61,725 nucleotides of DNA from a virus (taxonomy: Duplodnaviria > Caudoviricetes), in the IMG/VR virus record IMGVR_UViG_3300043409_000886, positions 1-61,725 of that record. One strand, 5' to 3'. Position numbers and translations under genes: made by a program. The notes below the pieces were generated by a model. It saw nothing but the letters and a program-made list of their open reading frames with translations. It ran no database searches and was not told the DNA's origin. The stretch's first letter is position 1, and each line of letters opens with the position of its first letter. Positions 1 to 61,725 of the stretch are shown here, one piece after another.

Positions 1-195
1 GCGGGGCCGCCGTATTGGCACGCATCTTGCTAGGCAAGCAAGTATTGTGCCAATCTGTTTGGCGCGCGTTGGCACGCATCTTGCTAGGCAAGCAAGTATT
101 GTGCCAATCTGTTTGGCGCGCGTTGGCACGCATCTTGCTAGGCAAGCAAAGACCGTGCCAAGGTGGCACCGCGGTGGGCCGGTGGGAAAGTGGGC
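1..195. repeat. Terminal overlap with 61585-61725 (circular contig); this copy has one extra 54-bp unit
   Basis: 61585-61725 (141 nt) equals 1-195 with one 54-bp unit removed. Confidence 0.9.
15..160. repeat. 54-bp tandem repeat (about 2.7 units), each with two convergent sigma54-type sites
   Basis: Unit starts at 15, 69, 123: TTGGCACGCATCTTGCTAGGCAAGCAAGTATTGTGCCAATCTGTTTGGCGCGCG. Confidence 0.95.
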
Positions 196-5052: not shown

Positions 5053-5236
5053 CTTTATTGGCTGGGCTTTGTTGTTGTGGTGCCTCTGGACCATCGAGCG
5101 GGTCGGCGTGAACGCCACGAGCCTCTGGCTGTCCGTTCTGGCCGTCGGCCTCCTGCTGCTCTCCTTTGCGGTCAGGGTGGGCACCAGTGCCTTGCTCTGG
5201 CGCCAGATCGGACGGGTGATAAACCGTGGCCGGTGA
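5045..5236 (+). CDS. Small membrane protein
   Basis: GTG start; two hydrophobic segments. Confidence 0.5.
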   Translation: MLNFIGWALLLWCLWTIERVGVNATSLWLSVLAVGLLLLSFAVRVGTSALLWRQIGRVINRGR

Positions 5237-5798
5237 GCGCACGGCGCTGGGTGACTACCTGCGCACCCTGCACAAGGTGCCCGTCCTCAAGCGCGAGGAG
5301 GAGGCGGAGCTTGGGCGCCGCGCGCAGCTTGGGTGCAAGCCAGCCCTTGACCTGCTGGTCACGCACAACCTGCGCTTCGTGGTCAGCACCGTCAAGGGCA
5401 TGCGGGACTGGGTCAACGTCAGCCTGCCCTACGACGACCTGATCGCCGCCGGCAACGAGGCCATGCTGGAGGCCGCCCGGTCGTGGGTCCCGACCCCCCG
5501 GGCGCGCTTCATCGCCTACGCCAAGCCCTTCATTTTGAGGGGCGTGGTGCGCGCGTGCGACAACGAGGGGAACACCATACGCCTCCCGGTGAATGTGTGC
5601 GAAGAGGTAAGGCTGATGAAGTACCACGAGAACGCCTTGGCGCAGGCCAACGGCGCGGAGCCCACGCAGGCACAGACCGCCGCGGCCATGGGCTCGACAG
5701 CCAAGCGTGTGGGGCAGCTGCGCGGGTTCATCATGCGCGAGCCCAGCAGCATCGAGCTACACCACGAGTCATCCAACGAGGAGCAGGAACATGAGTGA
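5226..5798 (+). CDS. Sigma70-family factor, regions 1.2-2-3 only (no region 4)
   Basis: YLRTLHKVPVLKREEEAELG (1.2), LVTHNLRFVVS (2.1), DDLIAAGNEAML (2.2), RFIAYAK (2.3), TIRLPVN and EPTQAQTAAAMG (3); ends at PSSIE plus an acidic tail. Confidence 0.9.
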   Translation: MAGERTALGDYLRTLHKVPVLKREEEAELGRRAQLGCKPALDLLVTHNLRFVVSTVKGMRDWVNVSLPYDDLIAAGNEAMLEAARSWVPTPRARFIAYAKPFILRGVVRACDNEGNTIRLPVNVCEEVRLMKYHENALAQANGAEPTQAQTAAAMGSTAKRVGQLRGFIMREPSSIELHHESSNEEQEHE

Positions 5799-9038: not shown

Positions 9039-9787
9039 TATTCTTGGACGTACTTGTTGTGTTTTGAGCTGTTCTCGGAAGCAGTTATGATCTGAAGATT
9101 TGCAGCAATGTGCAGACCCGACACATTGCGACCCTGCAAAGGGATCACGTGGTCCACGGCGTGTTGTATGCCCGTCACCCTCGTGCGCTCAGCGCACAGC
9201 ACATAGACCGCCTCAATCTCGGCTCGCTGCTCCTGTGTCAACCAAGGTGGTGTCCGCTGCAGCTTGGCCGCACGGCGGCGCGCGGTTTTTGCGTTGATTT
9301 TGCCGGGGTGCGCCTTTGCGTATTTGGCTCGGTAGGCGGCAGCTTTTTCCACGTTTGCTGCGCGATACACGGCGTGGCGGGCGGCAACCTTCGCGACGTT
9401 GGCCTCATAATACTTGGCGTTGTGGGCGGCAGCCTTCTCCGGGTTTGCCCTACGATATTCGGCTTGATAGGCGGCAACCTTCTCGACGTTGGCCACACGA
9501 TACAAGGCTCGTTGGGCGGCAACCTTCTCGACGTTGGCCACACGATACAAGGCTTGCTGGGCGACAACTTTCTCAAAACTTTCAGGGCTAAGCCAACCCT
9601 CATAAAGAAGCCCGGTCTTTTTAGCTATTGCGGCTCCATACCCTTGGAACCTGCGCCCATCAGCCCGGGTGTCCCCATACCTGAACGGCACCCCAGTGGC
9701 CGGGTTAATGCGCCTGAGCGATACAGACGGCTTCAAGCCCTCAATGTTGACGGGCAAGGATTCAGGTAAAACGGGAGTGTGGTTCAA
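9038..9787 (-). CDS. HNH homing endonuclease with 15-aa helical repeats
   Basis: C-terminal VDHVIPLQGRNVSGLHIAANLQIITASENSSKHN; central YRVANVEKVAA repeats. Confidence 0.85.
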   Translation of the reverse strand: MNHTPVLPESLPVNIEGLKPSVSLRRINPATGVPFRYGDTRADGRRFQGYGAAIAKKTGLLYEGWLSPESFEKVVAQQALYRVANVEKVAAQRALYRVANVEKVAAYQAEYRRANPEKAAAHNAKYYEANVAKVAARHAVYRAANVEKAAAYRAKYAKAHPGKINAKTARRRAAKLQRTPPWLTQEQRAEIEAVYVLCAERTRVTGIQHAVDHVIPLQGRNVSGLHIAANLQIITASENSSKHNKYVQE

Positions 9788-23361: not shown

Positions 23362-25896
23362 TTACTTGTTCCGTTTCGATATGGCTCGAGCCTTCGCCCG
23401 GGCGTCCTCTTTGCTGGCGGCGCCCCACGCCCTCAGCGAGAGCGCCAGCCGTGTGGGCTTGCCGTCCTTGGCCATCGGGCCGGGCATGTTGCCCATCCGG
23501 GCGAGGAAGGACGCGCGGCGCGGGTTGTCCCCGCCCTTGACCGGGGGCTTCAGCGTGCCACCCGTCTGGGCGTGGTAGCTGGCCCGGCCGACGGCGTTGA
23601 GCCCGCCCGACTTAGACTTCCCTTCGGCGCGCTGCCACGCGGCTCCCCCGCCGGCGAGGTGCTGCACCTCCCCGCCGTCCTTAAACGTGGGGGAGGTTGG
23701 GTCGTTCTTGTCTAGGCGGAATTCGGGGTCATCTGGGCGAGCCTTGCGAGGCTTTTTGGCAAGCACCAGCGGCCCAATCTGGACGACCTCCTCCGCACCC
23801 TTGACCGGCAGCATGTCGGCCTTGTCGTAGAAGTAGGAGTGCCGGAAGGGGTTCATCCCAACCTGAGCCCACTCGGGGTTCTTCATGGCCTCTGCGGCGT
23901 ACCGCCTCAGCTCCTCGGGGTCGTGCTCCTGCCAGTCCCCAAATATCCGCGCGATCGTGGTCTTGTCCATCTCCCCGGTGGCGATTTTGTGGGTACCCTT
24001 TGGGGGTGATATAAACTCAAGCCCACCCTTCAGGTAGGACGTGGGGCCGTACCCTATTGACTTGCCCGAGAGCGCATCGTGCAAGGATACGACGTCTTGA
24101 CCATACACGTCCTTGGCCGGCACGTCCTGCCGCGTGGCCACGCGCGAGCCGTGGGGTATGTCTTTGTTGATCCCGATGATCCCAGTCTCAAGCTGCGGAG
24201 CTTTGAGAACGCTCGCTATGTCCTCAGGAGAAATAATCTTTGGGGGCTCGCCGTAGGGCGACACGGGGTGGTGCCGCTCGACGATGGCGCGGTATTCCGC
24301 GGGGGTTATTTGTCGGTTGCCCAGCGCCACGGCGGCCTCCTGAGAGGCCGGGACGCGTTTCTGAAAGACCCCGGTCTTGTTGGCGGCCTTCCACGCGGCT
24401 ACTGCGGCGTCGGTCAGCCCCAGCCGCTTTAGTATCTCCTCGGCGACACCAGTCTTACCCCCGCCGGCGAGGTGTTGAATGCTGCCGCCCTCCGCCTTGA
24501 CGCGGGTGACAGGCTTCGGGTAGAACACCGCCGCGGCCTCCGCGGAGGGGTTGAGGTAGCCCTCGTAGCCGTACTCCTTGACGAGGCGCTCCATGTCGTT
24601 CTGCGCCGAGGAGGCGTCAAGGACACCTTTGTTTGCCTCCGCGGTGTGGGGGCGGGTGTTAGACACCCGGGAGAGAAGGTTCAGCTTCTCGGGGTCCCTC
24701 TGCAGGTCGTAGAGGTTGTCTGACTCCGCGCGGTACCCGTACGGCCCCAGCTTGGCCTCAGGGACGCGCTCACCCAGCTCACCGGGGTAGAAGTAGGTCC
24801 TGTCCTTCGGCCCCGAGCCAAGCCGCACACGCTCCGCCTCGGCGCCGGCTATGCCACGGCCGTACATCCGTGGGTCGGTTGTCGTGAGGTTCGAGAGGGG
24901 GCTGTAGTGCGTCAGCGTCGCGGAGGTCGCGGTGCCCGACCGGGGGGTAATCAGGCCCTGCATGTAGTCCGGGATGCCCCCGAGGTAGCCCGGCTCGTTG
25001 AACTCAGGGGGCAGGATGAGTGACTTCTGGGGGGCGTACTGGAACGTGTCCATTATCTCCCTGCGCTGCTCCAGCAACTTGCCGAGGCTCTCATCGCGGC
25101 CGTACCTGCGCGCCTCGTTTATGGCCTCATCGACCTTGAGCAGCTCCGCCTTCATTGTGGCGTTGAGCGGGGAGTAGTTGACGAGGCTGTTCTGGCCGCG
25201 TGTCTCGGCGGTCATGGCGGGTCGTGCCAGATCGGTGTACATCGGCTGGTGCGCACCCCACGCCACCTCCTCACCCTTCGGCCCGAAGGGGTTCTTCTTG
25301 ATGCCGTGCCCGTAGAAGTCGTGCACCGCGCGGAACATCTCGTTGGAGTTGAGCCCCGTGCGGGGGTCGACGGCGTTAAGGAAGTCGTGCGGGTCCCCGC
25401 CCTGAAAGACGTTCAGGTGCCCCTGCTTGGTGACGTCGTCGATCATCGCCCCGCTGTTCGGGTAGTTGCCCTCCCCGGCGCGGTGGAAGGACATGCGCAC
25501 CGGGAGGGACTCGAACTGCTGCTGGGTCTCCTTGGCCATCTGCCCGTAGGACTTGCGGAGGAGGTCGTCGTAGTTCTTTATGCCGTGCTGCCGCACCATC
25601 TGGGGGTTCTTCTTCGCGTAGGCGTCAAAGACGGCGGTGCGGTACTGCGGGGAGTCCTCCACACCAAGGGAGTGCACACGGGCTATGCCCGACTGCTTCG
25701 CGAGTGAGGACTCGGGCACCTCGGCGGGGGCGTACTGCCGACCCAGCGCCTTCTCGACGTACCTCTGCGCCGACCTCAGTGGGTTCGTCGGGCCGGGTGT
25801 GAGACCCTCCTTGGCGACGCGGTAGAAGGGGCCCTCCTGCTTGGTGGCGTAGGCAAGCGCCGCCTTAATCTCCGCGAGTGTCGGAGCCTTAGCCAT
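23362..25896 (-). CDS. Large modular virion/ejection protein
   Basis: FRAVHDFYGH..GEE..ETRGQNS domain, further modules and a basic C-terminal domain, separated by xxxGGxxQHLAGGG linkers. Confidence 0.7.
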   Translation of the reverse strand: MAKAPTLAEIKAALAYATKQEGPFYRVAKEGLTPGPTNPLRSAQRYVEKALGRQYAPAEVPESSLAKQSGIARVHSLGVEDSPQYRTAVFDAYAKKNPQMVRQHGIKNYDDLLRKSYGQMAKETQQQFESLPVRMSFHRAGEGNYPNSGAMIDDVTKQGHLNVFQGGDPHDFLNAVDPRTGLNSNEMFRAVHDFYGHGIKKNPFGPKGEEVAWGAHQPMYTDLARPAMTAETRGQNSLVNYSPLNATMKAELLKVDEAINEARRYGRDESLGKLLEQRREIMDTFQYAPQKSLILPPEFNEPGYLGGIPDYMQGLITPRSGTATSATLTHYSPLSNLTTTDPRMYGRGIAGAEAERVRLGSGPKDRTYFYPGELGERVPEAKLGPYGYRAESDNLYDLQRDPEKLNLLSRVSNTRPHTAEANKGVLDASSAQNDMERLVKEYGYEGYLNPSAEAAAVFYPKPVTRVKAEGGSIQHLAGGGKTGVAEEILKRLGLTDAAVAAWKAANKTGVFQKRVPASQEAAVALGNRQITPAEYRAIVERHHPVSPYGEPPKIISPEDIASVLKAPQLETGIIGINKDIPHGSRVATRQDVPAKDVYGQDVVSLHDALSGKSIGYGPTSYLKGGLEFISPPKGTHKIATGEMDKTTIARIFGDWQEHDPEELRRYAAEAMKNPEWAQVGMNPFRHSYFYDKADMLPVKGAEEVVQIGPLVLAKKPRKARPDDPEFRLDKNDPTSPTFKDGGEVQHLAGGGAAWQRAEGKSKSGGLNAVGRASYHAQTGGTLKPPVKGGDNPRRASFLARMGNMPGPMAKDGKPTRLALSLRAWGAASKEDARAKARAISKRNK

Positions 25897-58129: not shown

Positions 58130-59563
58130 TTACTGGGCGTACGGGTTCACGCGCTTCCTGCGGTCGTCCGCGTACTCGAAGTCCCTCGCCGGGAGCATGT
58201 CAAGCTGGAGCCACCCGGAGTCTCGGAGGATGCGCAGGGCCTGTGAGAGGCTGTCGACGTAGTCGTCGTGCCCCCCGGACTCGGGGAAGGAGCAGACTTG
58301 GCGCATGAACCGCTTTGACCAGTCCGCGAACTGCCCCGTGAGCTTGGCGTCCTCGGGTATGTAGATTTTTCCCTTCGCTATCAGGGGGGCCACGATGTTC
58401 ATGCGCTGCACCTTGTCCGAACGGCCGGGGTTGTACGACCTCACCGCTATCCCGGAGCCTTGGAGCTCCTGTATCAGGGATATGCCGGCCGACTTGTCCT
58501 CGATCAGCGCCAAGTCCGACTTGCGCCCCTTCCCGAACGTGTTGTCCGCCCCGTACACGACCTCCTTGTGGTCCGCGATGACGCGCTTCCTCAGCTCGGG
58601 GTAGGACATGTGGGCATCCCACGCGTCGAGCAGGATGGCGCACGTCCCGACGTCCTGATTCTCAAATATCCCCCACACCGTGCAGGCCGTGGGGTCGTTC
58701 TGGGTCTTCTCGGAGGTGGCGGGGTCGTAGCTTGCGATGACGTACTCCAGTTTGGGCGTCTCCCTCTTCGCGGGCCACATCTTGAACCACTTCCGCTTGA
58801 CTATCCCCACGTCCTCGGGGTCGAGCACCTTCCCCTCGATCTCCTGTTTCCCTAAGTCGGTACCCTCGTAGCTCTCGAGGGCGTTAAAGAAGCTCTTCGA
58901 CAGGTTCGCGCGGTTGGCGTAGGAGGAGACGTTGACCATATACACATTACCCCCCACCTTGCCCTCCACGAGGTCTACGATCAGCTCCTTGGGCTTGGGG
59001 GTGGTGGTGATGATCTGTTGCACACTCGCGAGGCGGGGGTCCTTCAGCCTCAGGGTGAACTGAATCTGGTCGTAGGAGTCGTCTAGGTACTCCCACGCCG
59101 CCAGCTCGTCAAGGTGCGCCCCGTGCCACTGGCTGCCGCGGTACCGTTCGGGCTCGGAGGCCGGTATGCCGCGTATCAAGCTGCCGTTCTTTAGCTCTAT
59201 CTCAAAAAGAGATTTATTGTAGCTCTTTATCAGGCTTGGGGGGATGATGTTTAGCAGCCCCGAGTCCCCCTCGAAGTTAGTCGCCCTGATGTCTGAGCTT
59301 GTGGGGGCCGCCACAAGCCACCGGGTGTTGCCGAACATGGCCGCCCGGAGGCCAATCCAGTTAGAGGCTGTGTGGGTCTTGCCCGCCCCCCGGCCGGCGC
59401 ACATAAAAAAGGTGTCGTACTCCTCCTCGGGCTCTTTTTGGTGCGGCATGGCGGTCAGCTCCCACCTCACACGCCATAGCGCAAGGTCAAGCTGCTCCTT
59501 GGGCCAGTGTTTATTGAGCTTTGCGAAGGTTGCTAAGGTTTTTTCCTGATTTTTGGTCAACAT
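58130..59563 (-). CDS. terL: Terminase large subunit
   Basis: Walker A AGRGAGKT, Walker B HLDELAAW, TTTPKP, nuclease SYDPA and HDDYVDSLSQ; ATG at 59563 overlaps the upstream stop. Confidence 0.92.
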   Translation of the reverse strand: MLTKNQEKTLATFAKLNKHWPKEQLDLALWRVRWELTAMPHQKEPEEEYDTFFMCAGRGAGKTHTASNWIGLRAAMFGNTRWLVAAPTSSDIRATNFEGDSGLLNIIPPSLIKSYNKSLFEIELKNGSLIRGIPASEPERYRGSQWHGAHLDELAAWEYLDDSYDQIQFTLRLKDPRLASVQQIITTTPKPKELIVDLVEGKVGGNVYMVNVSSYANRANLSKSFFNALESYEGTDLGKQEIEGKVLDPEDVGIVKRKWFKMWPAKRETPKLEYVIASYDPATSEKTQNDPTACTVWGIFENQDVGTCAILLDAWDAHMSYPELRKRVIADHKEVVYGADNTFGKGRKSDLALIEDKSAGISLIQELQGSGIAVRSYNPGRSDKVQRMNIVAPLIAKGKIYIPEDAKLTGQFADWSKRFMRQVCSFPESGGHDDYVDSLSQALRILRDSGWLQLDMLPARDFEYADDRRKRVNPYAQ

Positions 59564-60558
59564 ACGGCTATGAATCCCTCCCCTGCAAGAAACGTGCCAC
59601 CCGCCTCGATGTGGATGCAGGGTTCTGGCTTGAACGTGTACACTTTTTTGATAAATCTGCGCATGTGACGGGGTACCTGTCGTTTTTTTACACGATTTTC
59701 GACAAGTTCGATGTCCGTCCTGAAGGTCAGGCGCCACTGCCGGCGGTACTGCACCTCAAAGAGGCGGGTCTTTATGCCCAAGGACTCACAAATTCCTTGC
59801 ACCCGGGTCAGGAAGCGCCAATCGGGGTCACGGAACTGGTACTCGTCCTCCTCTTGGACGTAGGTGTAGGGCTTGGCGCAGATTATGCCGCGCAACAGGT
59901 CGTGCCTCTGCTCCAGCGACCCCCTGAGGTACTCCTCGGGTATGACGGTGGGTATCCTCGCGTAGTTTGTCAGGAAGGCGTTGGGCACCTTGGGGGCTAT
60001 CTCGTAGTAGGGCTTCTTCTTGCGGAGGGTCCTGTAGCCAAACCCACGCAGGCGCTCGGTGACGTACTCGAAGTTGCTCTCGTGCAGGGGCAGCTTGCGG
60101 CTACGGCCGCGCCTCCCGAACCACAGACCCACAATAAACGGCGGGACGGGAAGGTCCCGGGTGGGGTACTGGAGTGGCTTGGCGTTGGGGATGGAGTACT
60201 GCGCCCGGCCGTCACGGTGCAGCAGCCCCTCCTCCATCAGCTCGGGGGCGGTGCGGCGCTTGAGTGCCCGCGTGAAGTGCGTCCGCTGCGCCCCGGGCCG
60301 TGCCCGGTAGGCTAGGTGCTCGCATAGGTTGATGCGGTACTTCTTGTCCTCCAGATGCAGGGCCATGTTCTTGTCGCCCTGCACCCCCAGACCGTCGTCA
60401 AGCTCCACCCAGAAAGTCTCAGCAGGGGTGTAGGCCTGCACCAAGGTGATTTGCTTGGGGAGGCCGTCCGCCCCGAAGACGTAGTCCCCGATCACTAGGT
60501 CGCGGGCGCTCATCCACGCCCCGGGGGTGGGTATCAGGGTCAGGGCGCTAATGGCCAT
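59557..60558 (-). CDS. Free-standing degenerate intein (Hint + LAGLIDADG-like), no exteins
   Basis: AISALTLIPTPGAW...DLVIGDYVFGADG.P; LPVPPFIVGLWFG; IPEEYL.GS.EQR.DLL.G; CIHIE..TFLAGEGFIAVC*. Confidence 0.8.
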   Translation of the reverse strand: MAISALTLIPTPGAWMSARDLVIGDYVFGADGLPKQITLVQAYTPAETFWVELDDGLGVQGDKNMALHLEDKKYRINLCEHLAYRARPGAQRTHFTRALKRRTAPELMEEGLLHRDGRAQYSIPNAKPLQYPTRDLPVPPFIVGLWFGRRGRSRKLPLHESNFEYVTERLRGFGYRTLRKKKPYYEIAPKVPNAFLTNYARIPTVIPEEYLRGSLEQRHDLLRGIICAKPYTYVQEEDEYQFRDPDWRFLTRVQGICESLGIKTRLFEVQYRRQWRLTFRTDIELVENRVKKRQVPRHMRRFIKKVYTFKPEPCIHIEAGGTFLAGEGFIAVC

Positions 60559-60742
60559 ACCTCACCCGCATACGTACCGCGTTACTGACGCGCGCCCTCT
60601 CGGAGGCCGCGGGGGAGAGCCAACGCTCCCCGTAGTACCCGTCAGACCGAAGGGTGCCGGTGTAGTTGAAGAACACGTACCCATCCTGCCGTATGTCACC
60701 GCGGCGGTATGGCCTGCCAGTCCGTAAGCTGTTTCGTTTCAT
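60548..60742 (-). CDS. Small protein homologous to the N-terminal domain of the HNH endonuclease (likely leaderless)
   Basis: TG.P.R.GD.R.DG..F..Y.......G...E.WLSP shared with 9038-9787. Confidence 0.7.
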   Translation of the reverse strand: MKRNSLRTGRPYRRGDIRQDGYVFFNYTGTLRSDGYYGERWLSPAASERARVSNAVRMRVRYGH

Positions 60743-60748
60743 AACCTA

Positions 60749-60776
60749 CTTATACAAAAATGTGTACACACCCGCC
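60749..60776 (-). promoter_or_regulatory. Phage promoter class GGCG-N18-YATAAG
   Basis: GGGGCG-N18-TATAAGT; ATG 6 nt downstream. Confidence 0.7.
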
Positions 60777-60839
60777 CCAGCCAAAGTTTATTTTCATACC
60801 AAGGGGCGGTTTTACGATTGTAAGGGAAGTAACAGAAGA

Positions 60840-60968
60840 CAGGGTCTAAATGAGTTACTCCCAGTATATTATTTATCTTTTTAAATTTTAAATTAAATAA
60901 ATCAAATATACTATCACTACCCATACTTAACATACGCAAAACTGTCGACTTCTCGACACCTGTGTACA
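60840..60968. repeat. Inverted copy of 9950-10079
   Basis: Reverse complement matches apart from the AT-rich core and one substitution. Confidence 0.9.
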
Positions 60969-61029
60969 CAAATGTCAGATAAACGCAAAACTTTTGTGGA
61001 GCGCAGTTTGGAAAATACGCTCCACAAAG

Positions 61030-61521
61030 GTTAGTGAGCACTAACTAACATAACCAAACAGTACGCAAAAGTACCGGGGAAGTGTCGCATTTCGCGTATG
61101 GCTTGAACTGTGGCGCTCCGCATAAACAATATTGTTTATGTTTTAAAGCCTCGGCAGTTCTAAACAAGTGACAAGGTTATGCAACATCTGGCTCGTAACC
61201 GTGGGTGCGCATGGCAACAAGCCCAATGTTATCGTGCGCCGGCAGAGTAACCTGTGTACACATTTCTCTTTTTACTCTGCAAAAATTACAAAAAAATTTG
61301 TAGGGGGTCGAGTTTCGTGGGGGAATTGGACGGGCTTGGTATCTGTGTGGGGCCCTCCCTCTCGCCGTCGGGTACCTCAAAAAGGGGTGTCGGGTTATCA
61401 ACAAGCCCCCCTCATAGGTTAGTGAGTACTCACTAACTGATAGTGAGCCCTAACTGGGGATGTGGGCGCTCACTAACTGATAGTGAGCCCTAACTGGGTA
61501 GGTGAGTGAGTGCTCACTTAC
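61030..61521. promoter_or_regulatory. Cluster of SlmA-binding-sequence-like palindromes
   Basis: GTGAGTACTCAC at 61422-61433 and variants at 61034, 61443, 61462, 61483, 61506. Confidence 0.7.
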
Positions 61522-61533
61522 AAAGCGGCGGGC

Positions 61534-61570
61534 TGGCACGCATCTTGCTAGGCAAGCAAGTATCGTGCCA
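61534..61570. promoter_or_regulatory. Convergent pair of sigma54 consensus sites
   Basis: TGGCACGCATCTTGCT (+, 61534-61549) and TGGCACGATACTTGCT (-, 61555-61570). Confidence 0.75.
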
Positions 61571-61584
61571 AGGTGGCTAGGCCG

Positions 61585-61725
61585 GCGGGGCCGCCGTATT
61601 GGCACGCATCTTGCTAGGCAAGCAAGTATTGTGCCAATCTGTTTGGCGCGCGTTGGCACGCATCTTGCTAGGCAAGCAAAGACCGTGCCAAGGTGGCACC
61701 GCGGTGGGCCGGTGGGAAAGTGGGC
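61585..61725. repeat. Terminal overlap with the window start
   Basis: Equals 1-195 minus one 54-bp unit. Confidence 0.9.

Follow-up and report, generated by a model that had tools for sequence, protein, structure and literature searches.

Which protein binds a tight cluster of palindromes in the control region of an uncultured phage, and what would the phage gain from it? The cluster lies at positions 61030 to 61521 of the Caudoviricetes genome IMGVR_UViG_3300043409_000886, a complete virus record of 61,725 bp in IMG/VR that the stretch analyzed here (the window) covers in full. The original prediction proposed that these palindromes are binding sites (SBS) for the host nucleoid-occlusion factor SlmA, an antagonist of FtsZ, and that replicating phage DNA uses them to stop host cell division, or to protect its replication zone, without a phage protein. 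Its sequences and coordinates were all correct on rechecking, and the SBS-like cluster is real and stronger than it stated: there are five tiled 20-bp palindromes plus a sixth, and the flanks match as well as the cores. We favor host SlmA as the likeliest ligand, with a probability of about 0.5 based on sequence comparisons. The identity of the ligand is the better-supported step of the proposal, and the effect on division is the least supported.

We searched with a 20-bp pattern that has 16 fixed positions, GTNAGTGAGNNCTCACTNAC, and used the reversed pattern as a control. The sites in the window are as follows, with mismatches counted over the 16 fixed positions.

61030-61049: S0, the outlying sixth site, GTTAGTGAGCACTAACTAAC, 1 mismatch; it adjoins an inverted repeat (hairpin) at 60989-61032.
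61418-61437: S1, the perfect 20-bp palindrome GTTAGTGAGTACTCACTAAC, 0 mismatches.
61439-61458: S2, core GTGAGCCCTAAC, weak, 4 mismatches.
61458-61477: S3, core GTGGGCGCTCAC, 3 mismatches, right half-site perfect.
61479-61498: S4, weak, 4 mismatches, repeating S2 within a 40-bp tandem unit.
61502-61521: S5, GTGAGTGAGTGCTCACTTAC, 0 mismatches.

The cores start at 61422, 61443, 61462, 61483, and 61506 (spacing 21, 19, 21, and 23 bp), plus 61034 for S0. The 20-bp matches make S1 to S5 contiguous 20-bp units, head to tail over 104 bp, and a repeat search also returned the 40-bp tandem unit in the array. At up to four mismatches, the 61,725 bp contain one further match, at 25700, and the reversed pattern has no match in the window. 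The 12-mer at up to three mismatches is not enriched genome-wide (16 matches, 21.7 expected), and six of the 16 matches fall within 61034-61517. The signal is the local cluster together with the 20-bp match, not the genome-wide frequency of the 12-mer. Because the core GTGAGCGCTCAC resembles what we take to be the symmetric lac operator, we did not rely upon the 12-mer alone. The half-site CTCACTAA presumably recalls T3/T7 promoters, so we looked for a single-subunit RNA polymerase; T7-type RNA polymerase (PF00940) had no match in six frames of the window genome, a negative that carries little weight since all control genomes were also blank.

The 12-bp SBS of SlmA is GTGAGTACTCAC, in which G1, T2, A4, and G5 are strict, position 3 may be any purine, and position 6 any pyrimidine (PMC3020112). 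The 20-bp consensus oligonucleotide, from Cho et al. and quoted second-hand via PMC4423959, is AAGTAAGTGAGCGCTCACTTACGT; the natural SBS17 contains GTTAGTGACCATTTACTTAC, and each 20-bp site takes four SlmA monomers, i.e., two dimers (PMC4423959). S1 matches the 12-bp core exactly, and S5 deviates just at the tolerated center. Against the 20-bp consensus, including its GTnA...TnAC flanks, S1 and S5 agree at 16 of 16 fixed positions and S0 at 15 of 16. Thus, the SlmA-type reading of the motif extends to the full 20-bp consensus (PMC4423959) and not just the 12-mer (PMC3020112). In Escherichia coli K-12, the same pattern at up to three mismatches found 29 places (7 with the control pattern), 12 of which are one insertion-sequence repeat, and SBS17 was recovered among them. 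No K-12 site has fewer than two mismatches, so the phage sites are nearer to the consensus than any K-12 site.

Variation among phage sites was assessed over 383 sites from 112 non-redundant array loci, 243 of which are non-exact. Of the 383 sites, 370 have a pyrimidine at free position 10, 368 have a purine at its mirror, free position 11, and 336 have A or T at flank position 3. The fixed position that varies most among the 243 non-exact sites corresponds to core position 3 (G 116, A 65, T 62, C 0), where T lies outside the tolerance given in PMC3020112. The equivalents of G1, T2, A4, and G5 are kept in 213-233 of the same 243. These comparisons show that the free positions of the phage sites follow the published tolerances of SlmA, and by every sequence criterion tested, the sites are SlmA-type. 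The helical phasing originally read from the 19-23 bp core spacing is present in the window; across the 112 loci, however, site-to-site spacings peak at 23, 29, 33, 38, and 19 bp, which is tight packing with no common phase.

How widespread are such arrays? Our close-relative set comprised 80 IMG/VR relatives with TerL 74-80% identical (one identical), 39 of which include at least 3.5 kb upstream of TerL. Sites at up to three mismatches lie 1650-2410 bp upstream of the TerL match in 25 of these 39, and the other 14 have none. Array-free relatives carry other repeats at the same place: another palindrome three times in L072, 48-bp repeats three times in L050, and NtrC-like sites with sigma54 promoters in L088 and L089. 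An exact-pattern scan of IMG/VR returned at least 120 stretches, with 119 new loci listed (1.09 Mb). The listed loci contain 448 sites at up to four mismatches, versus 25 for the reversed control; this is the comparison of SBS clusters with background in related phages that was proposed originally as a check. Arrays of this kind are present in most of the 119 listed loci, and at least three sites fall within 300 bp in 49 of them.

These arrays belong to quite different phages. Any protein in common with the window was found in 34 of the first 79 listed loci (tblastn, 1e-5). Single-linkage clustering placed TerL of one broad family in 94 of 120 listed loci (next-largest cluster, 43); in the TerL-family loci listed, the sites lie 170-2500 bp upstream of the TerL 5' end, apart from two stray sites on the other side. 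The same TerL family also occurs in array-free relatives, and the motif is common to phages with <40% TerL identity. On the TerL tree of the 39 relatives, array status changes at least five times (three of them forced by starred branches). As read from this tree and the clusters, the distribution of arrays cuts across phage kinship. The locus comparisons show that the arrays are conserved across a large and diverse assemblage of uncultured phages, many ~37-kb contigs among them, and that their place is the divergent control region, on the upstream side of the terminase gene. Among cultured phages, no similar DNA was found for 60700-61725, and a search with the array of one ~37-kb contig (L154; E ≤10) gave just three chance-level matches of 25-28 nt.

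The ~37-kb group (L114, L165, L115, L176, L154) has its own order of elements: the TerS gene is followed by short ATGTGGGCA-like iterons, the A-tract AAAAATAAAAAAATT, CCTCCGTGACCG, a G+C hairpin with a C-run, five SlmA-type sites, the DnaA box TGTGGATAAC, iterons again, and a TTGACA...TACAAT early promoter.

Is there a host that could supply SlmA? A TerL scan of one GTDB genome per species found two related contigs, both in a single metagenome-assembled genome (MAG) of an "uncultured beta proteobacterium." This MAG encodes SlmA (277 bits against a cut-off of 120; 47% identical to E. coli SlmA). SlmA is over the cut-off in 89 of 121 genomes of the MAG's order, a tally that includes the unpublished genome G027, and in E. 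coli only among 14 control genomes. Between E. coli SlmA and seven betaproteobacterial orthologs, most of the helix-turn-helix (HTH; T33-F59) is unchanged, with 19 invariant positions, the recognition helix (S44-F52) does not vary at all, and F65 and N102 are conserved. A search for the major capsid protein in 401 genomes of this order, which had no comparison group, found relatives in three genomes. The nearest cultured kin of the window are Caulobacter phages (~62 kb, TerL 43% identical). One of them, phage RW, has a single site at up to four mismatches in ~60 kb, and the genome of its host did not pass the SlmA cut-off; the single weak site fits a host without SlmA, RW being a distant relative.

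To place the array, the ends of the record need to be joined. They overlap, since window positions 1-195 equal 61586-61725 (the last 140 bases) plus one additional copy of a 54-bp repeat. Judging from this overlap, the record is a circularly closed or terminally redundant assembly broken inside a perfect tandem repeat, and 60742-61725 plus 1-440 form a single divergent control region of ~1.4 kb. The phage has no other large control region; this one, which contains the array, separates the terminase/late operon from the early genes. The surrounding features are as follows.

58130-59737, minus strand: TerL, in the late operon to the left of the control region, which also contains orf64, a Hint-like 333-amino acid (aa) open reading frame (ORF), and the portal gene.
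60548-60742, minus strand: orf64, which opens the late operon at a distance of ~700 bp from the array; 64 aa, basic.
61280-61417: A-tract CAAAAATTACAAAAAAATTT, then a G+C-rich C-run stretch, directly before the array (read by eye).
61534-61697, continuing at 15-220 across the contig ends: sigma54-promoter-like palindromic units, three or four in tandem (TGGCACGCATCTTGCT plus its inverse), three of them within 61534-61690.
Early/replication genes, to the right of the control region: sigma70-family factor (5226-5795), primase, helicase, exonuclease, ribonucleotide reductase, and DNA polymerase.

Elements of the A-tract and C-run type were also seen, by eye, between array and late operon in the distant relatives inspected.

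Other features of this genome were noted in passing. Within its control region, the AT-rich half contains the 10-bp palindrome TGTGTACACA at 60761, 60961, and 61253 (intervals of 200 and 292 bp) and, at 61121-61140, the perfect 20-bp palindrome CATAAACAATATTGTTTATG; the relatives instead have DnaA-box repeats GTTATCCACAG, CCCTTGACA repeats, and TGTCTCTATACC repeats there. Two early genes are preceded by a 55-bp element with a TATAAT box (AATGCTGCACCGCGGCGAAGTGTATACGAAAAACCCATATAATACC...; 367-420 and 1520-1575), which is probably an early promoter. A 45-bp tandem repeat (5.5 copies, 74% matches; 9326-9574) lies inside or overlaps the ORF at 9110-9769 and is followed, directly upstream of the primase gene, by an AT-rich stretch; together, these could be a replication origin. 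The phage-encoded sigma70-family factor (5226-5795, plus strand) has regions 1.2 and 2 and shares 31-47% identity with its counterparts in five relatives' genomes. The 333-aa ORF (59557-60558, minus strand) has a Hint/intein-like start, matches intein-bearing large terminases weakly, overlaps the TerL ORF, and is kept in all five relatives' genomes compared (27-40% identity). One of the 48 early or small ORFs has a Thoeris anti-defense Tad2-like domain (E 3.9e-26), and the gene at 441-794 has a weak match, below the cut-off, to an S-adenosylmethionine lyase family (E 8e-4). No tRNA genes were found in the window genome, and a promoter/terminator scan of 60500-61725 together with Rfam gave nothing meaningful.

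Might the ligand instead be encoded by the phage, which would count against the original prediction? TetR_N (PF00440) had no match in six frames of the window genome, nor did an SlmA profile match anything at E ≤1 in a set of 38,888 ORFs drawn from every locus and from the genomes of five relatives. The 48 early or small ORFs are free of Pfam families of the HTH or TetR kind; for them, Pfam gave just the sigma70-family factor, an Enc34-type SSB, the Tad2-like domain, DUF3310, and weak matches; the sigma factor and SSB are the only DNA-binding families there. The genes between array and TerL vary as well, falling into at least four different sets, with three dissimilar TerS candidates among them, and across the assemblage no phage gene is a constant companion of the arrays. 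The search for a ligand of TetR or SlmA type thus came back empty, and a candidate of another kind, orf64, is kept in play within the window's clade by its co-occurrence with the arrays.

It is a real possibility, if an unlikely one, that the palindromes are operators or origin iterons of a phage-encoded protein, either orf64 in the window's clade or another regulator or initiator, and that their likeness to SlmA sites is convergence. The small, basic orf64 occurs in 23 of 25 array-bearing close relatives versus 1 of 14 array-free ones and is the sole ORF cluster that tracks the arrays among the 39. When the early regions of relatives were compared by whole-record searches (the sigma factor or primase as query had given no useful loci), orf64 was the sole window protein that both array-bearing, near-complete genomes (G122, G123) have and that the three array-free ones (G124-G126) all lack. 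Its predicted structure, a beta-hairpin plus a long helix, is confident (pLDDT 90), and its N-terminal domain of ~55 aa is conserved, with M1, R3, T8, F24, Y27, G35, E39, W41, and L42 invariant in 22 sequences; some homologs are extended C-terminally by ~80 aa. With kinship allowed for, however, the association amounts to three independent contrasts (sign test, p 0.5), and an adjoining gene would travel with the array as one mosaic block. An orf64 profile found the gene in 1 of the 119 listed loci, which is the contig of L018, and same-clade members have arrays with a different first late gene, so orf64 cannot be the arrays' general partner; it may act on them within the window's clade. There is no Pfam or PDB-sequence match for orf64 and no Foldseek match better than E 1.8, and for want of support from any of these, a by-eye likeness to the AP2/integrase-arm fold was rejected. 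The first 16 early genes of the window have no homolog in the array-bearing G122 and G123. Primase similarity is about equal in array-bearing and array-free relatives (60-66%). The setting of the arrays does resemble an origin or operator: there are AT-rich tracts and other iterons, and 29 of the 119 listed loci have a DnaA box no more than 600 bp away (the window has none). In addition, 9 of 147 exact sites, in 8 loci, stand exactly 13 nt after a TTGAC-N18-TAnAAT sigma70 promoter, where ~0.5 would be expected (L101 twice, L113, L142, L144, L157, L169, L181, and L205). These promoter-linked settings suggest a roadblock or operator role, one that is open to a TetR-family protein such as SlmA, since repression of a reporter through an SBS has been described (PMC3573117). 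Against convergence, an unrelated protein would, by our estimate, be very unlikely to match 16 fixed positions plus the spacing by chance. The same nine sites bear on an account that we consider the least probable of all, namely that the palindromes are RNA hairpins (5'-end stabilizers or terminators) rather than protein-binding DNA. A site 13 nt after the -10 hexamer would form the transcript 5' end, a second hairpin with a T-run often follows the palindrome in these promoter cassettes (by eye), and S0 adjoins a hairpin. Yet very different phages keep the actual sequence and not just the ability to pair, a hairpin made of a perfect 20-nt palindrome would have next to no loop, a terminator or leader has no need of five abutting copies, and no Rfam family has a meaningful score.

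Could the sites instead be bound by a host factor other than SlmA, such as another TetR-type protein or an enhancer-binding protein for the neighboring sigma54 promoters? We consider this improbable. The window array does adjoin three sigma54-like promoter units, the first TGGCAC standing at 61534, 12 bp past the last site; the units are labeled with what we take to be the sigma54 consensus, and each reads as a promoter both ways. Sigma54_activat (PF00158) had no match in the six-frame translation of the window genome, so activation would depend on a host protein. Similar sigma54 units were seen in inspected relatives (L018, L037, L072, L088, L098, L145), and a single TGGCACGGTTCTTGCT lies at 205-220, beside the units of the window. 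Perfect NtrC-type sites (TGCACC-N5-GGTGCA) occur in the same control region in L027, L088, L089, L098, L107, and L185, beside sigma54 promoters or interleaved with SlmA-type palindromes (interleaving or close company in L027, L088, L098, and L107), and lie within 600 bp in 9 of the 119 listed loci; the region thus does collect host-factor sites. However, a sigma54-like element lies within 600 bp in just 6 of the 119, so the arrays are not sigma54 enhancers in general. The sigma54 adjacency that had been described is true of the window, while the "landing pad" formed together with sigma54 sites is peculiar to its clade and does not hold as a general feature. The motif and its tolerated variants fit SlmA specifically, and we know of no other protein with this 20-bp consensus. 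Still less probable, in our estimation, is a role for the array in packaging, as a cosB- or pac-like site recognized by the small terminase subunit. It would account for the position of the sites upstream of one TerL family (the 94 of 120 loci above, with two extra sites on the opposite side), for arrays that start ~100-130 bp beyond the TerS-like gene in the ~37-kb group, and for the many contigs that break in or beside arrays. It would not account for the unrelated gene sets and TerS candidates, at least four of them, between array and TerL in motif-sharing phages, which do not have one small-terminase family in common, or for close relatives with 74-78% identical TerL that have other palindromes or none. 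The contigs break at varying points inside the arrays, as repeats cause, and not at one end, so the breaks are no evidence for physical genome ends there; G122 even assembles across its array and has its terminal repeat elsewhere.

Several observations, beside the co-occurrence of orf64, weigh against host SlmA as the ligand or against a block of division. Without exception, the arrays occupy one control region, in the company of promoters, DnaA boxes, and other iterons, where sites for phage-encoded regulators and initiators are usually found. In most loci, the search for a phage ligand reached ~5-7 kb from the arrays. The host link, made by co-binning in a MAG, is weak, and the co-binned relatives (L088, L089) are themselves array-free although the MAG has SlmA. 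R73, needed for FtsZ antagonism in E. coli (PMC4117426), is not conserved in the betaproteobacterial orthologs. Nor is there a near-consensus excess in chromosomes of the order (30 places versus 30 for the control, up to two mismatches, 121 genomes), which leaves no independent sign that the order's SlmA uses this motif. The perfect 14-mer occurs twice in the chromosomes of these 121 genomes and nowhere in E. coli K-12, and the chromosomal places fetched are single sites with no phage genes nearby. As K-12 also has no perfect sites, the chromosomal enrichment test is uninformative rather than negative.

How might SlmA bound at the array serve the phage? Host SlmA would coat the ~100-bp array, and each genome copy would take up ~20 monomers. 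The nearest leftward sigma54-like promoter would start near 61545, with S5 beginning ~24 nt downstream, and all leftward transcripts would have to cross the array to reach the late operon. An SlmA-coated array could then be a roadblock or insulator below the leftward sigma54-like promoters that gates late-operon transcription. As phage DNA replicates, hundreds of high-affinity sites might draw SlmA off the chromosome and relieve its local block, and DNA-activated SlmA scattered through the cell might antagonize FtsZ and delay division. Taken whole, this would make the tiled SlmA sites a non-coding DNA effector, both a copy-number timer for late genes and a protein-free division stop, widespread among uncultured phages of SlmA-bearing bacteria; we offer this account tentatively and consider it doubtful. 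The premise that multicopy sites can block division has a basis in published work, in which multicopy SBS plasmids block Z-rings in E. coli, and it needs a qualification that also counts against the division stop: that block required extra SlmA, at ~4-fold overexpression (PMC4117426). The conserved control-region position, together with the sites 13 nt after a promoter, favors a local role in transcription no less than a division block.

If SlmA does bind, this would be the first natural case known to us of a virus borrowing nucleoid occlusion by DNA sites alone; to our knowledge, the known phage tactics against host division are proteins. A literature search found no report of SlmA sites on a phage, as judged by titles and abstract openings. 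The sites would also be the strongest natural SlmA sites known and a host-prediction marker for a large group of uncultured phages. If a phage protein is the ligand instead, the arrays show how closely an unrelated system mimics a host site, and they still mark a control hub.

Compared with known systems, the phage sites have the same 20-bp palindrome as the chromosomal SBS of the E. coli type, GT(A/T)AGTGAG-YR-CTCACT(A/T)AC, and the same tolerated variants (core positions 6 and 3). The chromosomal sites, however, are single, dispersed, and imperfect (two mismatches at best in K-12), whereas the phage sites, which are known from sequence alone, are near-consensus and tiled three to eight at a time in one control region. 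Multicopy SBS plasmids likewise present many off-chromosome copies of the site and block Z-rings with SlmA (PMC4117426 and PMC3573117); they are artificial, with two tandem sites and ~4-fold SlmA overexpression (PMC4117426), while the phage array is natural and has five or six sites. Should the division block be true, its outcome would be one already familiar from phage proteins. Lambda Kil and T7 Gp0.4 are reportedly protein inhibitors of FtsZ; those proteins act on FtsZ or ZipA, whereas here non-coding DNA would borrow a host inhibitor. Finally, lambda cosB carries a site for host IHF and is likewise a case of a host-protein site in a phage control region beside the terminase genes; the candidate host factor differs here, a role in packaging is improbable, and the phage array is palindromic and tiled.

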